A stretch of DNA of 64,000 nucleotides. Origin: Candidatus Fermentibacterota bacterium (GTDB lineage Bacteria > Fermentibacterota > Fermentibacteria > Fermentibacterales > JCC-6). The notes beneath the pieces are model-generated. The model was not told where the DNA came from and did no database searches. It saw only the letters and a program-made list of their open reading frames with translations. The position numbers were made by a program, and so were the translations under genes. Of this stretch, positions 4,795 to 14,548 are shown in pieces. The stretch spans positions 256,001 to 320,000 of the forward strand of contig CAWJQI010000005.1 of NCBI GenBank assembly GCA_963845085.1, read 5' to 3'. Each line of letters begins with the position of its first letter. Positions within the stretch are counted from its first letter, which is position 1.

Positions 4795-6165
4795 ATGGAG
4801 GCAGTGATGATTCAGCGCACCGGTATAGGCGGAATACTCGCCGGTGGGTTCACCGGGAGCAGTGTTACGGTTTACGGATGGGTGAGGACTTCCCGTTCGG
4901 GGAAGAATGTTGCCTTTGCTGCGCTGAACGACGGTTCCTCAGTGATGAACCTGCAGGTCGTGTTCGACCGCCAGGTATTCTCCGACGAGCTTCTTTCGGG
5001 GCTCCAGGTGGGTGCATGCGTCAGGGTGACCGGGTTTGTCGCCGAAAGCCAGGGCAGCGAGCAGCCCTTCGAGCTTCAGGCCTCCTCGCTCGAGATAGTG
5101 GGTCCCGTCGACGAGGAGTTTCCACTTCAGAAGAAGAGGCACGGTCTCGAGTTCCTTCGTACCATGCCGCACATACGGCCCCGTACGAACACATTCGGAA
5201 GCGTCTTCCGTTCAAGCCATCACCTGTCGCAGGCGATACACCGTTTCTTCGACTCCGAGGGCTTCTTCCACGTGCACACCCCCATCATCACCGAGAGCGA
5301 CTGCGAGGGCGCCGGTGAGACTTTCCGGGTGACAACGCTCCCCGCAGGGTCGTGCGATTGCGAATCCGACTACTTCAAGCGCAGGGCTTACCTCTCCGTC
5401 AGCGGGCAGCTCGAGGCTGAACCGCTCGCGCTCGCACTGGGGAAGGTCTACACCTTCGGTCCCACGTTCAGGGCCGACCCGTCCGACACCCGCACCCATG
5501 CTGCCGAGTTCTGGATGATCGAACCGGAGATGTCGTTCTTCGACCTCGAGGATGACATGGACCTCATCGAGCGCTTCGTGAAGTCATGCGCGCTGTACAT
5601 GGCGGACAAGTGCGCCTCCGATATCGCATTCTTCTCCGAGCACTACGAGAAGGGGCTTAACGAAAGGTACCGACTCATCGAGAAGGAGTTCGCAAGGGTG
5701 AGTTACACCGAGGCCGTATCCATCCTCGGCTCCGCATCATCCTCCCTCTCCTCGGTGCCTTCATGGGGTGACGATCTTGCCACCGAGCATGAGCGGTACC
5801 TCTCGGAGAAGCACTTCTGCAGGCCTGTCTTCGTAACTGACTACCCCGCATCCATGAAGCCGTTCTACATGTACCTGAATCCCGACGAGCGAACTGTCGC
5901 TGCGTGCGATCTTCTCGTTCCCGGCGTGGGCGAGATCGTCGGAGGCAGCCAGCGCGAGCACAGGCTTGAGGTGCTCAGGAAGAGGGCTGTGAACCAGGGG
6001 CTGGATCTCTCCGTCTATGCCTGGTACCTCGAACTCAGGCGGTGGGGTTCAGCGCCTCATGCAGGCTTCGGGCTTGGTTTTGAAAGGCTGTTGATGTACC
6101 TCACGGGGATGGACAACATCAGGGATGTTATCCCGTTCCCGCGCACTTTTGGAAAAATGTACTGA
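4795..6165 (+). CDS. asnS: Asparagine--tRNA ligase
   Basis: OB-fold anticodon domain (GWVRT...LNDGS), GPTFRA, AEFWMIEPE, GEIVGGSQRE, PHAGFGLGFERL. Confidence 0.95.
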   Translation: MEAVMIQRTGIGGILAGGFTGSSVTVYGWVRTSRSGKNVAFAALNDGSSVMNLQVVFDRQVFSDELLSGLQVGACVRVTGFVAESQGSEQPFELQASSLEIVGPVDEEFPLQKKRHGLEFLRTMPHIRPRTNTFGSVFRSSHHLSQAIHRFFDSEGFFHVHTPIITESDCEGAGETFRVTTLPAGSCDCESDYFKRRAYLSVSGQLEAEPLALALGKVYTFGPTFRADPSDTRTHAAEFWMIEPEMSFFDLEDDMDLIERFVKSCALYMADKCASDIAFFSEHYEKGLNERYRLIEKEFARVSYTEAVSILGSASSSLSSVPSWGDDLATEHERYLSEKHFCRPVFVTDYPASMKPFYMYLNPDERTVAACDLLVPGVGEIVGGSQREHRLEVLRKRAVNQGLDLSVYAWYLELRRWGSAPHAGFGLGFERLLMYLTGMDNIRDVIPFPRTFGKMY

Positions 6166-6180: not shown

Positions 6181-9100
6181 ATGAGTGATACCATCATGAC
6201 CATCGACGGGAATGAAGCCGCGGCCAGAGTGGCCCACAAACTCAGCGAGGTCATCGCCATCTACCCTATCACCCCCTCGAGCAACATGGGGGAGCATGCC
6301 GATGAATGGTCGGCCGCAGGCAAAACAAACATCTGGAACACCGTCCCGCTGGTGCAGGAGATGCAGAGCGAGGGCGGAGCAGCGGCATCGGTTCACGGAG
6401 CCCTTCAGACCGGCGCCCTCACTACAACCTTCACCGCAAGCCAGGGGCTTCTTCTCATGATCCCCACGATGCACAAGCTCGCAGGGGAACTCACCTCCAC
6501 AGTGTTCCACGTTTCCGCCCGCAGCCTTGCCTGTCAGGCTCTCTCGATCTTCGGTGACCACAGCGACGTCATGTCCGTGCGCAATACCGGCTTCGCGCTG
6601 CTTTCCAGCGCGAGCGTGCAGGAAGTGCCCGACATGGCAGTCATCTCTCACGCGGCCACTCTCAGCAGCCGCATCCCCTTCCTGCACTTCTTCGACGGGT
6701 TCCGCACGAGCCACGAGGTCCAGAAGATCTCCGTGCCTGGCGATGACGTGCTCCGTGCGATGATCGACGACGAACTGGTCCTTGCCCACAGACACAGGGG
6801 AATGAACCCGAACCGACCCGTTCTCAGGGGAACCAGCCAGAACCCCGACGTTTACTTCCAGGGCCGCGAGACCGTCAACACCTATCACCTCGCAACCCCG
6901 GGCATCGTTCAGGAATACATGGACATTTACGCCGGCCTCACCGGCAGGCAGTACCACCTGTTCGACTACGTGGGCGCCCCTGATGCGGAAAGCGTTGTCG
7001 TGCTGATGGGTTCGGGCTGCGAAACTGCACATGAGACGGTCGAGTGCATGCTTGCCGACGGTGCAAAGGTGGGCGTTCTGAAGGTAAGGCTTTACCGTCC
7101 CTTCGACCCGCGCGCCATGCTTGCCGCCATCCCTTCCACCGTGAAGGTTCTCAGCGTTCTCGACCGCACCAAGGAACCCGGAAGCGAGGGTGAGCCCCTC
7201 TACAAAGACGTGGCAACCGCCCTCAAGGAATCCGGCCGCTGCGGCGTGAAGGTGCTCGGCGGCAGGTACGGCCTGTCCAGCAAGGAATTCACGCCCGCGA
7301 TGGTGAAGGCTGTGTTCGACAATGCCGCCGGTGAGAAGAAGCACGGCTTCACCGTCGGGATCAATGACGACCTCACGGGCACGAGCATCACTGTTCCCGA
7401 GTTCTGCATACCCTCCCAGGGCATGCACCAGGCCGTTTTCTTCGGCCTTGGCTCGGACGGAACCGTGGGCGCCAACAAGAACAGCATCAAGATCATCGGT
7501 GAAACCACCGACTTCTACGCCCAGGGGTATTTCGTCTACGACTCCAAGAAGGCCGGCGCCATCACAGTGAGCCATCTCCGCTTCGGTCCCCGCCCGATCC
7601 GCCAGACCTGCCTCATCGGGCGTGCCGACTTCGTGGCATGCCACCAGACCGTGTTCATGGAGAAGTACGACATACTCCGCTACGCTGCCAAGGGGGCAAC
7701 CTTCCTTCTGAACACCCCCTACAGCAGGGATGAGGTCTGGAACAGCCTGCCCCGCGAGGCCCAGAAAGACATCATCGAGAAGAACATCAGGTTCTATGTG
7801 ATCGACGCCTACAAGGTGGCCCGGGAGACAGACATGGGCGTGATGATCAACACCATCATGCAGACCTGCTTCTTTGCGATCAGCGGTGTCATCCCGAGGG
7901 AAGAGGCGATTGCGAAGATCAAGGGCGCCATCAAGAAAACCTACGGCCGCAAGGGCGAGAAGATCGTTGCCAAGAACTACGCTGCGGTGGACCACAGTCT
8001 GGCCAACCTCTTCGAGGTGCAGCACCCCGCAGAGGTCACAAGCTCATTCAACAGACCCCCTTCCGTTCCTGCCGATGCACCTGATTTCGTGCAGAACGTA
8101 ACCGCAGAGATCATCGCCCAGCGGGGCGACAGCCTTCCCGTGAGCGCGATGCCTCCCGACGGCACCTGGCCAACCGGAACGACCCAGTACGAGAAGAGGA
8201 ACATCGCCCTCTCGATACCGGTCTGGGATCCCGCCGTCTGTCTGCAGTGCGGGGTGTGCAGCCTTGTCTGTCCCCACGCCGCCATCCGCATAAAGCACTA
8301 CGACGCGGGCTGCCTGAAGGGTGCCCCCGCCACGTTCAAGAGCATCGATGGCAAGGCCAGGTTCCAGGGCACTTCCTACACGGTCCAGGTTGCCCCCGAG
8401 GACTGCACCGGCTGCGGTGCCTGCGTCGAGGCATGCCCGGGCAGGAACAAGGCCGTCGAGGGCCGGAAGGCCATCAACATGGAGCCCCAGATCCCTCTCA
8501 GGGCTCCCGAGGCTGAGAACTACTCATTCTTCCTTGCCATACCCGACTACGACCGTTCCAAGGTTGACGTCTCCTCCGTGAAGGGCAGCCAGCTTCTCCG
8601 CCCGCTGTTCGAGTACTCCGGAGCATGCGCCGGCTGCGGCGAGACCCCCTATGTGAAGCTCCTCACGCAGCTCTATGGCGACAGGGCCGTGATCGCCAAC
8701 GCCACGGGCTGCAGCAGCATCTACGGCGGGAACCTTCCCACGACCCCCTACTGCAGTAACGCCGACGGGCGAGGCCCCGCCTGGAACAACAGCCTCTTCG
8801 AGGACGCCGCAGAGTTCGGCTTCGGCTTCAGGCTCACCGCCGACAAGCACACCGGATTCGCTGTCGAACTGCTGCAGGCCATGGGTGACAAGCTCGACGC
8901 ATCACTGGTCGCCGGGCTTCTCGACTGTGCCCAGGTCTCCGAGGAGGAGATCGAGGCCCAGAGGAAAAGGGTGGATGCGCTCCGCAAGGCGCTGGGACGA
9001 ATCGACACCCCCGAAGCCCGCCAGCTTGAAAGCCTCGCCGACTACTTCGTGAAACGAAGCGTCTGGATCATTGGCGGGGACGGCTGGGCGTACGACATCG

Positions 9101-9714
9101 GTTACGGCGGTCTCGACCATGTCCTTGCCCAGGGCAAGAACGTCAACGCTCTTGTGCTCGACACCGGCGTTTACTCAAACACCGGCGGGCAGTGCTCGAA
9201 GGCAACCCCGATGGGCGCTGTCGCCAAGTTCGCAGCGAGCGGCAAACCCATGCCCAGGAAAGACCTGGCCATGATAAGCATGACCTACGGCAACATCTAC
9301 GTGGCACAGATCGCCATGGGCGCCAACTACGGCCAGGCAGTGAAGGCGTTCGTCGAGGCCGAAAGTTACGACGGCCCATCGATCATCATCGCCTACAGCC
9401 ACTGCATCGCCCACGGAATCAACATGACCAAGGGCATGGATGAACAGAAGCTTGCCGTGAAAACCGGCCTCTGGCCGCTGTTCCGCTTCGATCCGAGGCT
9501 GATCGGCAAGGGCCAGTCACCACTCCAGCTCGATTCCAAGAAGCCCGACACACCCTTCAGCGAACTCGCCCGCAGCGAGGTGCGCTGGAAGGTTCTTCTC
9601 GACAAGGACCCTGAGCGCGGAGAGATGCTCGTAAAGCAGGCCCAGGTTGAGATCAACAGAAGGTTCCACCTCTACGAGCAGATGGCTGCCATGAATTGGA
9701 ACGCCGGCGAGTAG
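6181..9714 (+). CDS. nifJ: Pyruvate:ferredoxin (flavodoxin) oxidoreductase, single-chain
   Basis: YPITPSS, EMQSEGGA, two CxxCxxCxxxCP ferredoxin motifs, ACAGCGE, GGDGWAYDIG TPP motif. Confidence 0.97.
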   Translation: MSDTIMTIDGNEAAARVAHKLSEVIAIYPITPSSNMGEHADEWSAAGKTNIWNTVPLVQEMQSEGGAAASVHGALQTGALTTTFTASQGLLLMIPTMHKLAGELTSTVFHVSARSLACQALSIFGDHSDVMSVRNTGFALLSSASVQEVPDMAVISHAATLSSRIPFLHFFDGFRTSHEVQKISVPGDDVLRAMIDDELVLAHRHRGMNPNRPVLRGTSQNPDVYFQGRETVNTYHLATPGIVQEYMDIYAGLTGRQYHLFDYVGAPDAESVVVLMGSGCETAHETVECMLADGAKVGVLKVRLYRPFDPRAMLAAIPSTVKVLSVLDRTKEPGSEGEPLYKDVATALKESGRCGVKVLGGRYGLSSKEFTPAMVKAVFDNAAGEKKHGFTVGINDDLTGTSITVPEFCIPSQGMHQAVFFGLGSDGTVGANKNSIKIIGETTDFYAQGYFVYDSKKAGAITVSHLRFGPRPIRQTCLIGRADFVACHQTVFMEKYDILRYAAKGATFLLNTPYSRDEVWNSLPREAQKDIIEKNIRFYVIDAYKVARETDMGVMINTIMQTCFFAISGVIPREEAIAKIKGAIKKTYGRKGEKIVAKNYAAVDHSLANLFEVQHPAEVTSSFNRPPSVPADAPDFVQNVTAEIIAQRGDSLPVSAMPPDGTWPTGTTQYEKRNIALSIPVWDPAVCLQCGVCSLVCPHAAIRIKHYDAGCLKGAPATFKSIDGKARFQGTSYTVQVAPEDCTGCGACVEACPGRNKAVEGRKAINMEPQIPLRAPEAENYSFFLAIPDYDRSKVDVSSVKGSQLLRPLFEYSGACAGCGETPYVKLLTQLYGDRAVIANATGCSSIYGGNLPTTPYCSNADGRGPAWNNSLFEDAAEFGFGFRLTADKHTGFAVELLQAMGDKLDASLVAGLLDCAQVSEEEIEAQRKRVDALRKALGRIDTPEARQLESLADYFVKRSVWIIGGDGWAYDIGYGGLDHVLAQGKNVNALVLDTGVYSNTGGQCSKATPMGAVAKFAASGKPMPRKDLAMISMTYGNIYVAQIAMGANYGQAVKAFVEAESYDGPSIIIAYSHCIAHGINMTKGMDEQKLAVKTGLWPLFRFDPRLIGKGQSPLQLDSKKPDTPFSELARSEVRWKVLLDKDPERGEMLVKQAQVEINRRFHLYEQMAAMNWNAGE

Positions 9715-9734: not shown

Positions 9735-9756
9735 GGGGGGGGCATCCGCCCCCCCC
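9735..9756. terminator. GC hairpin between convergent genes (possible terminator)
   Basis: GGGGGGGGC-ATCC-GCCCCCCCC; weak U-tract. Confidence 0.45.
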
Positions 9757-9770
9757 TGTAGTTTCCCGGC

Positions 9771-11336
9771 CTACCAGGTTTCCGCCGTTACGGCGAATTC
9801 CCTTTCGCAATCGACAGGACCGGCGTGAACCACATCAGGGCACTCCCTGTCTGAGTGCCTTGTAAGAAGGCTTACAACCACTGTGCCGGCAACGGCCATC
9901 AGCACGCCGAAAGCCAGGTAATTGTAGCCATAGCTGTTCGAAAGCCATCCAGGAAGAGCCTCGGCCCAGGAGTCAGCTATCGTGTAGTACTCCCAGAAGT
10001 AACCGCCTATCGACCCGGCCAGGCCAAGTAGAATCCCGGCGGTAACACCGGCAGCAGTCGCCCGTTTCCAGAAAGCTGCAAGGAACGGAACCGCAATGCA
10101 GGCAGAAAGCACTCCACTTGAAATGTAGTACACGTCTCCCAGCTTCTCGCTTGCCAGCGCCGCAGCCAGGGCTAAAAGGATTGTCGCCATCGAAATGATC
10201 CTTGAAAGGGTGTGCCGCTTGCCTGAAGCGGTGTTCCTGCGTTTCAGAACGGGCTCAACCATGTCGTGCGCAAGAGCCATGGAAGTCACGTTGCTGAAGG
10301 TGTCGATGGTGGACATCTGGCACGCCACAAGTCCGAGGACCATGATGATGGAAAGCCAGCCCGGCAGGCCGGCTATCACGGCACTGATAATCCCCAGTGC
10401 GTCGGGACCCACTTCAGGGGCCGGTGCTCCGTCAACAGGGGGGAATGCCGCAAGGGCGCCAAAGGCGGCAATGGATGGCAGCAGGCAGATAAAGACACCG
10501 ATGAGAAGCACCCCGAGCCATGCTCCCCGTCTGGCCTGCCTCGTGGAGGGTGCAGCCTGAACGCGGATCACCAGGTCCTGCTCCAGAAGCCATCCCGGAA
10601 GGTAGCCGACAAGCAGCACAACGGGGAACAAAACACCCAGAAACCACGGATTGCCGGCATCGCCGGCTGCCGCCCAGGGCGGGGTGACGGTTCGAAGGGC
10701 GCCCACGATATCTCCATTTGTCGCCTGCTGGGCCATTTCCAACACACCGCCCGCAAGAACTATCATGAAGAGAGCCATTATGCCGAACTGAAGCAGGTCG
10801 GTGGTGACGATGGCCCGAAAACCACCGAACCACGTGTAGAAAAGAATCGGCACAACTATCACCAGCATTGCTGCCCAGGCCGGAACTCCCAGAAACGGTG
10901 AAGCAAGGCTTCCCGCCATGAAAAGCTCCGCCTGCGTCCAGGAAAGAAAAACACCGAATGACATCACAGCAGTGAGAACCCTTGCGGCCGGACCGAACCG
11001 CCTCTGAAGGGCCTGGGGAATGCTGATGGTCGGGATGCGCCGGAGCATGGGTACGGCGGCCACGATAATGAACGTTAAAAGAATCCACGGTATCGGAAGG
11101 ATCCAGAGCCCGGACGCTCCATACATATAAATCTGCGACATTCCGAAGCCGATCCACCCCAGCATGAGCCAGCCGGCTGTCAGGCTGACGCCAAGCCGCC
11201 ACCCGGGAATCTTACGGTTGGCAAGCCAGAACTCGAGCTGGCTCTTCTCATCACTGGACTTTGCCCGAAGCTTCCATCCGAGAAGCATCACTGCCAGGCT
11301 GTAAAGAACTACTGCGCCCCAGTAAGCCCACGTCAT
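9771..11336 (-). CDS. Sodium:solute symporter (SSS) family transporter
   Basis: About 13 hydrophobic segments; FWLANR, RRFG, GGFRAIVTTDLLQ, MSTID motifs; abuts upstream barrel gene. Confidence 0.9.
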   Translation of the reverse strand: MTWAYWGAVVLYSLAVMLLGWKLRAKSSDEKSQLEFWLANRKIPGWRLGVSLTAGWLMLGWIGFGMSQIYMYGASGLWILPIPWILLTFIIVAAVPMLRRIPTISIPQALQRRFGPAARVLTAVMSFGVFLSWTQAELFMAGSLASPFLGVPAWAAMLVIVVPILFYTWFGGFRAIVTTDLLQFGIMALFMIVLAGGVLEMAQQATNGDIVGALRTVTPPWAAAGDAGNPWFLGVLFPVVLLVGYLPGWLLEQDLVIRVQAAPSTRQARRGAWLGVLLIGVFICLLPSIAAFGALAAFPPVDGAPAPEVGPDALGIISAVIAGLPGWLSIIMVLGLVACQMSTIDTFSNVTSMALAHDMVEPVLKRRNTASGKRHTLSRIISMATILLALAAALASEKLGDVYYISSGVLSACIAVPFLAAFWKRATAAGVTAGILLGLAGSIGGYFWEYYTIADSWAEALPGWLSNSYGYNYLAFGVLMAVAGTVVVSLLTRHSDRECPDVVHAGPVDCEREFAVTAETW

Positions 11337-12067
11337 TGAAGGAAACCCCAGGTTACTGAAATACCGGCGCGAAAGTGCGAGGGATCTTCAAAAGCATCCT
11401 TGATTTCGCCGTCGAGAAGCGTCGAGAAATCGGCGGACGGGGTGAGGGTTATGACGGACGAAAGCGGGATGGGTGCGGAAATCCCGATTGTGAGGTCGGC
11501 GAGGGCAGCCTTGTTCACGCCGTAAATCGCAAGGTTGTGCCTGCGGTTCCCATAGCCGAGATTTAGGTTAACCGCAGGTTCTACACAACCCACCGGTATT
11601 CCCTGGGCGAGGGAAACGGAACCGTAAAGCCCCTCGGCCTGCTCAAGATCGCGATACAGGTTCAGCGACGGTGACAGGGATACATTGGGACCCATGCAGA
11701 TATAGAGCTCTGATGAGCTTTCGTATCCCGTATTTGGATACCAGTACTTGCCGAGTCCACCGTACACCCACAGCGGGCCCAGATCCCTCGTATAGTCAAG
11801 GATGAAGTCAACTTCCGTGAACTCTCCGGCAGCGAATCCATAACCGTCACCGTAGTCATTCTCCTCGGTCATTTCCATGCTGCCCCACAGAGTGGTGCTG
11901 AACCCGGATAACCCCGCAGAGGCTGAAGGCTCGAGCACCGGAGCGTCAACGTATACCACGCCCCTGAAGAGGTAGCTGCTTCTTGCCGTGAGGTCTGCAG
12001 AACCCCAGAGATCACCGGCTGCTGCAGCTGCGAGCAGCGTCAATACAAAGATCAGACTTGTTCTCAA
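11333..12067 (-). CDS. Outer-membrane beta-barrel protein (TorF/TIGR02001-like putative porin)
   Basis: Signal peptide, S.YLFRG motif, EVDFILDY, amphipathic strands, aromatic C-terminus; TTG start with GGAGG RBS. Confidence 0.75.
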   Translation of the reverse strand: MRTSLIFVLTLLAAAAAGDLWGSADLTARSSYLFRGVVYVDAPVLEPSASAGLSGFSTTLWGSMEMTEENDYGDGYGFAAGEFTEVDFILDYTRDLGPLWVYGGLGKYWYPNTGYESSSELYICMGPNVSLSPSLNLYRDLEQAEGLYGSVSLAQGIPVGCVEPAVNLNLGYGNRRHNLAIYGVNKAALADLTIGISAPIPLSSVITLTPSADFSTLLDGEIKDAFEDPSHFRAGISVTWGFLQ

Positions 12068-12070
12068 GGA

Positions 12071-12128
12071 AACCCTCCCCCGGTATTCCGGCCGGGAAGG
12101 TTATGCGAATACAGCCCCCCGGACCGGA
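12071..12128 (-). promoter_or_regulatory. Alternative mRNA pairings controlling the barrel-gene RBS (anti-anti-SD / anti-SD / SD)
   Basis: A UCCGGUCCGGGGGG (12128-12115) pairs with B CCUUCCCGGCCGGA (12100-12087); B alternatively pairs with SD segment CCGGGGGAGGGUU (12083-12071). Confidence 0.65.
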
Positions 12129-12193
12129 GTTGTCGATCGGCTGCCCAACCCGGACAGCAATTCAATTCCTCATGTACGACGGACTGCGGTCAT
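12101..12193 (-). CDS. Putative selenocysteine-containing leader peptide MTAVRRT(U)GIELLSGLGSRSTTPVRGAVFA, 30 aa
   Basis: RBS AAGGAAAGGA before ATG 12193; in-frame TGA at 12172-12170; frame stays open to TAA 12103-12101; SECIS-like hairpin 11 nt after the TGA. Confidence 0.65.
12140..12158 (-). promoter_or_regulatory. Bacterial SECIS-like hairpin (leader peptide)
   Basis: GCUGUCC-GGGUU-GGGCAGC, 7-bp stem, G-first apical loop, 11 nt 3' of UGA. Confidence 0.65.
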
Positions 12194-12220
12194 CTTGTCC
12201 TTTCCTTGAAGGTTGGTCGG

Positions 12221-12249
12221 ATTCTTTTCACGAAACACATCGATGTCAA
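12221..12249 (-). promoter_or_regulatory. Sigma70-type promoter for leader/barrel/SSS operon
   Basis: TTGACA (12249-12244), 17 nt, AAGAAT (12226-12221). Confidence 0.6.
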
Positions 12250-12333: not shown

Positions 12334-13423
12334 TCAGAAGGCAGCCTTTTTAGCCTCGTCGGAGAGCTCGCACCCGTACTTTTCCACCAGATACCTGTCA
12401 AGGTCATCGGCCCTGGATGCCATGTTCACGATGTTTTCCCGTAATGCTGTCGACATGGTCCGATTTCAGGTCAGAGAGGTGCACCCTGTACGAGATGTAG
12501 ACAAGCCCGCTGTCGACACCCAGGTTGTAGGGCAGCGCAGGATTGCTGAGGATATACCTGTAGAGCTCGGTGAGGTTTTCGGTCGGCAGTTTCACAAGGG
12601 GACATGTGACAGTCAGGTAGTTCGACCTGTATACGAAGATCCTGATGAGAGCGCTTCCCCGGTGAAACTCCCAGAACTCGTAGCCGTTCCGCGCCAGAAC
12701 GGGGTCAATCCCCATCTTCTCGACGGCGCTCTCGACAAACACGGAAAGATCGGTCATGGGAGCTCTTTCAAAGAGGCTCTTCACATCGAGCCTGACCCCG
12801 CAGTTCTCGCAGTACTCATCCTCCTGCTCGAGGAGGCAGCCGCACGACGGGCATCTCACCGAGTAGTGTTCGGGCATCTTCTTCTCGAGAAGTGCCAGCT
12901 CCCTCCCTATGATATCCGCCGGGAGCGAAAAACCTATGTTCTCGGCTTCCTTGAACTTGCACGTTGTTATGCCGACCACCCGGCCGTCGGGAAGCACCAT
13001 CGGGCCACCGCTGTTGCCGGGATTGATCGCGGCGTCGGTCTGGATGTAGCACTGTCCGTTCACGAGCTGGTTGACGCTCGAAATGATGCCCTCGGTCACG
13101 TTGAACGGATAGCCGAAGGGGTAGCCGAGCACAAGTATCCTGTCCATCACCTTCAGGTTGTCGACGCTCGAAAAGTCAAGTTCAGGGGCATCGATCACAC
13201 CCGCGGGTCTGAGAAACGCGAGATCGTGCTTCGGGGAGATCAGTATCACATCCGCCCTCATGGCTTCACTGCCGGTGTTCTCGACCGAGACCTCCCTCTC
13301 TCCGTCGACAACGTGGTGGTTCGTGATGATCACACCGTGCTTCTTCGAATAGAAGCCCGACCCGCTTCCGCGCGAGGTTCTTACCTTGAAGACCAGTTTG
13401 AAGATGTCATTGAGATCTGCCAT
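12334..13423 (-). CDS. Trypsin-like serine protease + zinc ribbon + YbjN-like domain; +1 frameshift near 12443
   Basis: GSGSGF, TNHHV, DLA, INPGNSGGP; CPSC...CENC; after the shift the frame continues RENIVNMASRADDLDRYLVEKYG...AAF to stop at 12336-12334. Confidence 0.8.
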
Positions 13424-13426
13424 GAT

Positions 13427-14548
13427 CTACTCCGATGGCTGTTGGAGTTTCATAACTTCCGACACCGCCTTGAAAAGCTCTTCAGCGGCCGTCTTCCAAT
13501 CTTTTCCCGACGCCGCGTGCAATCCATGGTTGAGGGTTTCTTCTATGCTCCTCGGAACCAGGAACCTGTAGAGGAGATTGTAGACATCGTAGAGAAGGAA
13601 CACCACCGCGCTCATGAACGCCGAGGAGGAGATGTCCTTCTCTGCATTGAGATAGTAGTTCTCAAGCTCCTTCTTTATCAGGGGCAGGAAGGCGTGCTTC
13701 CTGAGGGAAATCAGGCTTTCAGTCCTGTAGATGGATTCCGAGAACTTTTCAGGAGTGATGGCTGCGAGGTCGCTGAAAAAGCCGCAGAGATTGTCGAGCT
13801 TCTCAGCGGGGGCCGCCTTGGAAAATGAATCGTTCACGACCTTTCCGATCTCGGCGGCCAGAAATCCCTTCGGCGAAAAGATGTAGTCGATCTTCCAGAG
13901 GGATATCAGGCCGGACTCAACGCCCATGTCGTACCACCGGTTGTCCCTGAAGTAATGAAGGTAATCGAGACCTTCCTTCACATGCGCTCCAAACCTTGCG
14001 TAAATGTCGGCCAGTTCGGCGTCGGTGCAGTGAATGCACTTCGGTTCGCAGATCCTTTTTGCCTGGAACTTCTCGATGAACACGTCGTCGAAATGATCGG
14101 CGTTGATGCACAGCTCGTACAGGATGTCGTACAGTTTGTAGGGCTCGCACAGCGAAAGCGGCACATCGATCTCGAAATGAAGCTGGTCCTCCCTCAGCAC
14201 GATCTGTGTCAGGAAGAGGACGCCGAAGTTGATCTCCGACACCTGTCTGAGCAGGGCGTTCACCCTTTTCTCCGGCAGGCTCAGGAATGGTGCACGAATC
14301 TGAAGGGCCGAATCGGTGATCCTCATGTTGATAATGATTGAGCCGTGGGGCAGGTTGAACTCGTTCCCGTCTGCACTGCCGTACTTCGCGGCGGCTTCCG
14401 GATCCAGGTAGTCAAGCAGGTTCAGGATGGTTTCCCTGTGTTTTCCGGCGCTGTGCGAATCAAGCACCGCCTGCCATCTGTTGGTGAAATCCGTGAGCCC
14501 TGTCAGGCCTCCCGTAGGCGTTTCGAAAATGTACGAAGTGTTCATCAT
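13427..14548 (-). CDS. Hypothetical protein with YbjN/type-III-chaperone-like N-terminal domain
   Basis: HGSIII...APFL.LP...LLRQVSEINF...ADHFDD pattern; co-oriented 3 bp from protease. Confidence 0.6.
   Translation of the reverse strand: MMNTSYIFETPTGGLTGLTDFTNRWQAVLDSHSAGKHRETILNLLDYLDPEAAAKYGSADGNEFNLPHGSIIINMRITDSALQIRAPFLSLPEKRVNALLRQVSEINFGVLFLTQIVLREDQLHFEIDVPLSLCEPYKLYDILYELCINADHFDDVFIEKFQAKRICEPKCIHCTDAELADIYARFGAHVKEGLDYLHYFRDNRWYDMGVESGLISLWKIDYIFSPKGFLAAEIGKVVNDSFSKAAPAEKLDNLCGFFSDLAAITPEKFSESIYRTESLISLRKHAFLPLIKKELENYYLNAEKDISSSAFMSAVVFLLYDVYNLLYRFLVPRSIEETLNHGLHAASGKDWKTAAEELFKAVSEVMKLQQPSE

Follow-up and report, generated by a model that had tools for sequence, protein, structure and literature searches.

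According to two articles (PMC11097638, PMC13188914), a dedicated or specific high-affinity transporter for selenium is not known. The standing candidate for a selenium transporter is the YedE family (TIGR04112; PMC5322559), and clusters that combine corrinoid and MtaA-like genes with double-cubane genes have already been linked to the use of methyl-selenide (PMC10418091). At the level of regulation, a SECIS-like element in the 5' UTR of E. coli selAB is repressive through a SelB-bound hairpin next to the Shine-Dalgarno (SD) sequence (PMC13449736). In the transport of choline, the head group is ringed by W62, Y67, Y91, W141, W254 and W406 of human CHT1 (PMC11589582), and the cage of the bacterial sfCHT consists of W99, Y126, W176, W298 and W445 (PMC13220886).

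Here we describe an operon that is a candidate for a dedicated bacterial selenium importer. The window, by which we mean the whole 64,000-nucleotide stretch of DNA analysed, carries this operon as two minus-strand open reading frames (ORFs), a barrel gene and then a symporter gene, with a 4-nt overlap (Table 1). A sequence-only reading of the same DNA had described two abutting genes, a signal-peptide barrel and a sodium:solute symporter (SSS), under a leader with a UGA codon and a SECIS element, and our analysis confirms the coordinates, the folds and the leader. It had also proposed the pair as a candidate selenium uptake system with selenite or selenide as possible substrates. A selenium-linked uptake system has good support from the leader, the regulon, the gene neighbourhoods and the genome profile; selenite and selenide are disfavoured by a CHT1-like cage with invariant acidic residues. 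Our main reading, with a probability of about 0.5, is that the operon is a selenium-scavenging uptake system for a methylated selenium cation such as trimethylselenonium. Next to the operon, at 12404-14548 on the minus strand, the window encodes a trypsin-like protease with a zinc ribbon and a YbjN/T3SS-chaperone-like protein, a pair that is also close to the operon in locus L001. ARAGORN found no match in the 64,000 nt.

Table 1. Features of the operon, its leader and the two further leaders in the same genome. Positions refer to the window unless preceded by G000, the genome of the window, and a contig.
Feature	Position	Strand	Description
G+C hairpin, likely terminator	9735..9756	.	between operon and convergent gene 6181-9714
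sodium:solute symporter gene	9771..11336	-	521 aa, distinct SSS clade, CHT1-like aromatic pocket
outer-membrane barrel gene	11333..12067	-	244 aa, signal peptide, 12-stranded, Gcw_chp/TorF-like
alternative pairings	12071..12122	-	hairpin 12102-12071 masks barrel SD; predicted
uORF read-through frame if UGA is Sec	12101..12193	-	30 codons, then TAA
SECIS-geometry hairpin	12140..12158	-	7-bp stem, starts about 11 nt after UGA, G-rich loop
leader uORF	12170..12193	-	7 codons, MTAVRRT, ends with TGA at 12172-12170
Shine-Dalgarno of leader uORF, strong	12198..12207	-	sequence
sigma70-like promoter	12221..12249	-	10/12 consensus matches, 17-nt spacer
methyltransferase/double-cubane operon with leader (locus L118)	G000 C1:284699-289930	-	second leader
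Omp28-like CxxC gene C5:523236-522229 with leader (locus L119)	G000 C5:522229-523373	-	third leader

The symporter belongs to the SSF family (PF00474; 109.6 bits, cut-off 22.8), and proteins of the SSS act as importers. Its scores lie far below the NCBIfam cut-offs of the PutP, PanF, ActP and VC_2705 subfamilies, and as far as sequence can tell it represents a new clade within the SSS, outside the named subfamilies. The predicted structure (pLDDT 92.1) has, by its structure matches, a LeuT-type fold; in the structure search the top TM-score is that of CHT1 (0.79), and SGLT2 comes first by E-value. The protein search is described here by the best 120 of 293 matches. In an alignment of 168 sequences, which were not dereplicated, the Na2/Na3-site residues are conserved: the Na2-site hydroxyl pair in TM8 (S342 in 168 and T343 in 165 of the 168 sequences) aligns with the site in sfCHT.

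Region-limited searches gave no direct alignment of the window symporter with CHT, and the cage was therefore mapped through a homologue (L092) that is 44% identical to the window symporter and aligns with sfCHT at an E-value of 2.7e-5 in HMMER. In this weak alignment W56, W61, W133, W249 and Y403 fall on five of the six CHT1 cage positions, W249 across a one-residue gap. The position of Y91 in CHT1 (Y126 in sfCHT) is aliphatic, with an invariant W84 two residues before it, and the VGGGY Cl- loop of CHT is replaced by a bulkier L-M-L-G-W. In vSGLT and SiaT the first and third cage positions are not aromatic in the alignment. The five aromatic residues are invariant in 166 to 168 of the 168 sequences (again without dereplication), and so are the acidic residues E137, E252 and D254. 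A cage of this kind together with invariant acids favours a cation over selenite or selenide, and the substrate may be a small methylated onium cation. The cage itself cannot tell selenium from sulfur or nitrogen. Taken together with the selenium regulon and the methyl-handling partners described below, trimethylselenonium or a related selenonium would be the simplest fit.

The second line of evidence is the leader. Bacterial SECIS geometry requires an in-frame UGA and a stem-loop with a loop G about 16-23 nt downstream. The window leader has this geometry, as judged by eye against the UxxC genes of its own genome, and that genome contains the required machinery: selA, selB, selD (with an in-frame TGA) and tRNA-Sec. 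Also by eye, the hairpin is like those that follow an in-frame TGA in three of four Omp28-like UxxC genes of the same genome. The TGA of the leader uORF is likely to be a selenocysteine codon. Rfam gave no gathering-score match in the window, and in the leader only chance-level matches. The sigma70-like site is weak by itself (one found, 1.0 expected in shuffled sequence); a comparable -35 hexamer precedes the uORF in several homologues.

How the leader might switch the operon was studied by constrained folding. In the window, the barrel SD is unpaired with a value of 0.01 in the free RNA and 0.07 with a ribosome at the UGA; it falls to about zero when a ribosome sits over the competing segment, and reaches up to 0.54 for a ribosome that has arrived at the read-through stop. 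The competing segment is G-rich (12122-12111) and is predicted to pair, in what would be a weak switch, with the 5' arm of the hairpin that masks the SD. A ribosome at the UGA raises SD unpairing in L001, L002, L042 and L054 but not in L006, L008, L013 and L049. Because the effect is weak in the window and mixed among the homologues, folding does not decide in which direction the leader switches. In the L010/L013 group, the bases that follow the UGA can, by eye, pair with the 5' side of a hairpin resembling a terminator, and the output there may therefore be transcriptional.

To compare leaders we fetched 16 genome and 76 metagenome loci, which form 58 clusters at 90% identity, and placed the starts of 56 operons manually on ORF maps (one start comes from genome G119), with up to 400 nt of upstream sequence and less in several cases. 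Under a hairpin rule that was tuned after the first examples had been inspected, a hairpin follows 32 of 350 TGA triplets and 5 of 290 TAA or TAG triplets upstream of these 56 operons (Fisher p 5e-5). By the same rule, TGA and hairpin are found upstream of 26 of the 56 homologous operons versus 72 of 604 genes in G000 (12%). The 26 matches divide into 19 short uORF leaders with an in-frame start, four probable selenoprotein codons and three that we attribute to chance; in the other 30 operons no leader was seen. Not counted as leaders were L009, L046, L057 and L099, where the UGA looks like a part or remnant of a selenoprotein, and L015, L066 and L083, which have no in-frame start. The uORF peptides vary among the homologues, and the position of the terminal UGA and the hairpin is kept. 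Several of the hairpins have a GGUC loop, which we take to be the canonical SECIS loop. In a quick tree of 50 rows, leaders and selenium-linked neighbours occur on several deep branches; the L087/L101, L070/L072, L011/L015 and L068/L069 branches show no credible selenium marker in the fetched DNA.

Some of these loci deserve separate mention. Directly before the symporter, L046 (239-780) and L099 (63-586) contain an ORF of about 175 aa that ends in Tyr-Gly-TGA and is followed by a SECIS-geometry hairpin; it is probably an unannotated selenoprotein, with a short frame in L009 and L057. In L075, L079, L081, L089, L107 and L117, leaders lie upstream of large YedE/double-cubane/corrinoid clusters (in L079, upstream of the barrel alone), and five of these leaders have GGUC loops. 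At least two UGA-hairpin units stand in series in L079, L081, L089 and L117. Inside the selD-YedE cluster of L107, one ORF (4962-5813) starts like a cysteine desulfurase or Sec lyase and ends as the C-terminal half of the symporter, which is either a deletion fusion or a mis-assembly. Downstream of the symporter in L002 (7900-11600) there are regular repeats that resemble a CRISPR array.

A comparable UGA/hairpin leader occurs twice more in G000, outside the symporter operon (Table 1). One copy heads an operon in which a SAM-methyltransferase gene is joined by two double-cubane-like genes and by a double-cubane reductase (above the cut-off of NF040772) with its activase. NCBIfam has no name for this methyltransferase family, which gave 36 matches across the phylum; in 26 of the 30 loci fetched from these the gene is preceded by the leader. 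We regard it as likely to be a new selenium-metabolism gene. The other copy heads the only Cys paralog in a T9SS-sorted Omp28-like family whose other four members are UxxC, with TGA for the first Cys. From its sequence, a Cys paralog under the leader has the pattern of a low-selenium back-up. One would expect such a back-up to be switched on under selenium shortage, which is our main ground for assuming that the leader is on at low selenium. Cysteine desulfurase/Sec-lyase-like genes lie about 8-13 kb from the leader of the Cys paralog (G000 C5:509191-510351 and 513743-515116), the latter appearing as two tblastn pieces. The link of the operon to selenium is strong but indirect, and the symporter operon is very probably selenium-regulated.

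Gene neighbourhoods and genome profiles bear on the same question. For the neighbourhoods we counted as partners a methyltransferase, double-cubane reductase or activase, corrinoid protein, MtaA-like enzyme, Ram activase, FtrB selenoprotein and sel genes. In the fetched DNA, where many contigs are short, 22 of the 58 clusters carry such methyl-transfer or double-cubane partners or sel genes near the symporter; selA, selD or seleno_YedE is present in six, and seleno_YedE adjoins the symporter in three. The flanking partners in other genomes are the genes that carry the same leader in G000.

The symporter is found in 12 of 70 genomes of the phylum. As selA is near-universal there (64 of 70), its profile is uninformative within the phylum: eleven of the carriers have selA, and in the twelfth, a genome of 77% completeness, we found selB. 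The methyltransferase is present in all 12 carriers versus 36 of the 70 genomes overall (p 1e-4, with kin that are not independent). Outside the phylum, seven of eight carriers have selA or selB; in the eighth, G071, selD was found, selA was not, and selB did not exceed the cut-off. The methyltransferase occurs in six of these eight and the double-cubane reductase in the other two. Taken together, selA or selB is present in 19 of the 20 carrier genomes, and with selD included all 20 have at least one of these genes; the uptake proposal had been made to depend on close orthologues not being common in genomes without a selenium trait, and it stands on this point. In the class of G071, the symporter is present in 4 of 301 genomes, and selA in three of these four as well as in 27 of 30 methyltransferase carriers, versus 107 of 301 overall; in 14 genomes the methyltransferase lies less than 8 kb from selA. 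In the class of G374, one of 201 genomes has the symporter. Such rarity among selenocysteine users (12/70, 4/301 and 1/201) marks it as an accessory route. The G119 cluster resembles a distant group (41-45%) and may be mis-binned. Seleno_YedE was not found in G000; it occurs in six of the 70 phylum genomes and in none of the 12 carriers, but we rejected a mutual exclusion of symporter and YedE, since no overlap is within chance (about one expected).

The barrel protein is predicted to begin with a hydrophobic helix, followed by 12 long strands (AlphaFold, pLDDT 93.4), and its fold matches are the small outer-membrane barrels PcoB, OmpG, Tsx and KdgM. It has no Pfam match itself, and a profile search found no solved relatives by sequence. 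The putative porins of the Gcw_chp/TorF type (PF09694, TIGR02001) are like it in size, signal peptide, and profile and language-model similarity, but the window protein scores below the family cut-off (TIGR02001: E 0.008, 15.7 bits, cut-off 47.15). PF09694 is matched by 20 of 43 aligned barrel homologues at E-values up to 0.01, and in a language-model atlas the barrel scores 0.98 to a cluster of which 34% of the members carry Gcw_chp. Of the 58 locus clusters, 31 contain a barrel homologue and seven have other signal-peptide proteins, two of them with weak porin matches. In the close relatives L010, L048 and L049 the leader directly precedes the symporter with no barrel between. Since the homologue is found in only part of the clusters and is missing in these relatives, the barrel is an accessory part of the uptake system. 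Larger signal-peptide proteins (410-500 aa) take its place upstream of the symporter in L014, L059, L063, L067, L071 and L080.

In the mechanism that we propose, the barrel would pass a small methylated selenium cation through the outer membrane, and the symporter would carry it inward together with sodium at times of low selenocysteine supply. If Sec-tRNA is scarce, the ribosome may halt at the UGA of the uORF, and the downstream RNA would then expose the barrel SD; in one group of relatives the stalled ribosome might prevent a terminator instead. Plentiful Sec-tRNA would allow read-through and hold the operon off. Inside the symporter, the Trp/Tyr cage could hold the methylated onium group through cation-pi contacts, as in CHT1. 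Most speculative are the steps that follow: the co-regulated methyltransferase, or elsewhere the corrinoid/MtaA-like set, might remove methyl groups, and the ATP-driven double-cubane reductase might cut C-Se bonds to deliver selenide to SelD. That the symporter imports some selenium compound is probable; that this compound is a selenonium cation has, in our judgement, an even chance.

The evidence from regulon and neighbourhood fits equally well with a selenium-regulated importer of selenite, selenide, methylseleninate, selenourea or a neutral seleno-amino acid. SSS members that carry anions (NIS, SMCT) or urea (DUR3) are also among the fold matches, and Sec-lyase-like genes occur in three of the 58 loci. 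We nevertheless consider such substrates unlikely: the Trp/Tyr cage and E137, E252 and D254 are invariant, the equally invariant R258 aligns with a general tunnel arginine of the SSS, the partner enzymes are of methyl-transfer and reductive-cleavage types, and seleno_YedE often adjoins the symporter as a second transporter. One could also argue that the operon is induced at low selenium to import an onium compound without selenium (choline, betaine, trimethylsulfonium or S-methylmethionine) that feeds a selenium-independent bypass. After all, the cage is that of a choline transporter, the best solved relatives of the methyltransferase are phosphoethanolamine and sarcosine/dimethylglycine N-methyltransferases, a corrinoid neighbour of the symporter scores with MtgC/MtbC models (below cut-off), and the leader also heads a selenium-free back-up gene. 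Some related methyltransferase clusters have been proposed to act on sulfur (PMC10418091). However, the partners adjoin selA, selB, selD and YedE and not a selenoenzyme to replace, and we find a bypass of this kind rather improbable.

Two further alternatives concern the leader itself. If it were on at high selenium, the system could serve to methylate and export excess selenium; YedE has been suggested as an exporter (PMC5322559), and the SAM-methyltransferase could methylate selenide. For the window, folding predicts that the SD opens once a ribosome has reached the read-through stop. Yet the distance from that stop to the start is not conserved among the homologues (36-245 nt), the leader heads the Cys back-up paralog, and the symporter keeps its Na2/Na3-site residues in a family of importers; we think export quite improbable. 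It is more doubtful still, to the point of being very hard to believe, that SelB does not read the UGA-hairpin leader and that the link to selenium is incidental. Hairpins do form easily in G+C-rich DNA, our rule was tuned on early examples, and the loose test lets through 12% of the genes in G000. But one and the same rule finds enrichment after TGA as compared with TAA and TAG, the leader recurs at most of the fetched loci of an independent gene, the methyltransferase, and several loci have canonical GGUC loops.

Uptake of a methylated selenium cation, if true, would provide a function for the selenium-associated double-cubane reductase and the unnamed methyltransferase, and sediment anaerobes would regain selenium from methylated selenonium species. 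The importer question is directly testable, because a single-subunit SSS protein is easily expressed and assayed and its pocket gives a short list of substrates. Among openly accessible papers, at the level of their main text, we found no report of an SSS selenium importer or of a selenocysteine-uORF leader; the cluster tables of PMC10418091 and PMC5322559 could include the symporter. With slightly less than even confidence, we suggest that the clade represents the first prokaryotic importer dedicated to selenium at high affinity, in the form of a sodium symporter whose choline-type cage takes methylated selenonium ions. The clade would stand at the entry of an undescribed scavenging pathway that runs from barrel and symporter through SAM-methyltransferase and double-cubane reductase to SelD, switched on by a selenocysteine-codon leader.

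Like the trp and his leader-peptide attenuators, in which the progress of the ribosome controls downstream expression, the window leader would set downstream expression by ribosome progress. With the E. coli selAB element (PMC13449736) it would share control of downstream expression by selenocysteine supply, but it is a translated uORF with an in-frame UGA and SECIS geometry. The type 1 mlp clusters and the methyl-selenide salvage genes SdmABC of M. voltae combine, as do the symporter loci, corrinoid, MtaA-like, Ram/RACE activase and double-cubane genes beside sel genes (PMC10418091); the main text of that paper names no symporter, porin, leader or SECIS. In contrast to type 1 mlp, the symporter loci, cut at 5 kb, show one MtaA-like gene and a class I SAM-methyltransferase, and the corrinoid set is absent from both the window operon and the co-regulated operon of G000, which places these two operons outside that type. 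YedE is, like the symporter, a membrane protein tied to selenium by context, and the two share neighbours (a dehydratase-like/double-cubane subunit, an activase, selD and Sec lyase), but their folds are unrelated (PMC5322559). With CHT1/SLC5A7 and sfCHT (PMC11589582, PMC13220886) the symporter shares the SSS/LeuT fold, the Na2/Na3 residues and, by the weak alignment described above, aromatic residues at five of six cage positions. It differs from them in its identity of 17-20%, below the 34-38% identity to CHT1 within that family, in having L-M-L-G for the Cl- loop and an aliphatic residue for Y91, and in adding the invariant acids E137, E252 and D254 together with a selenium-type regulation.
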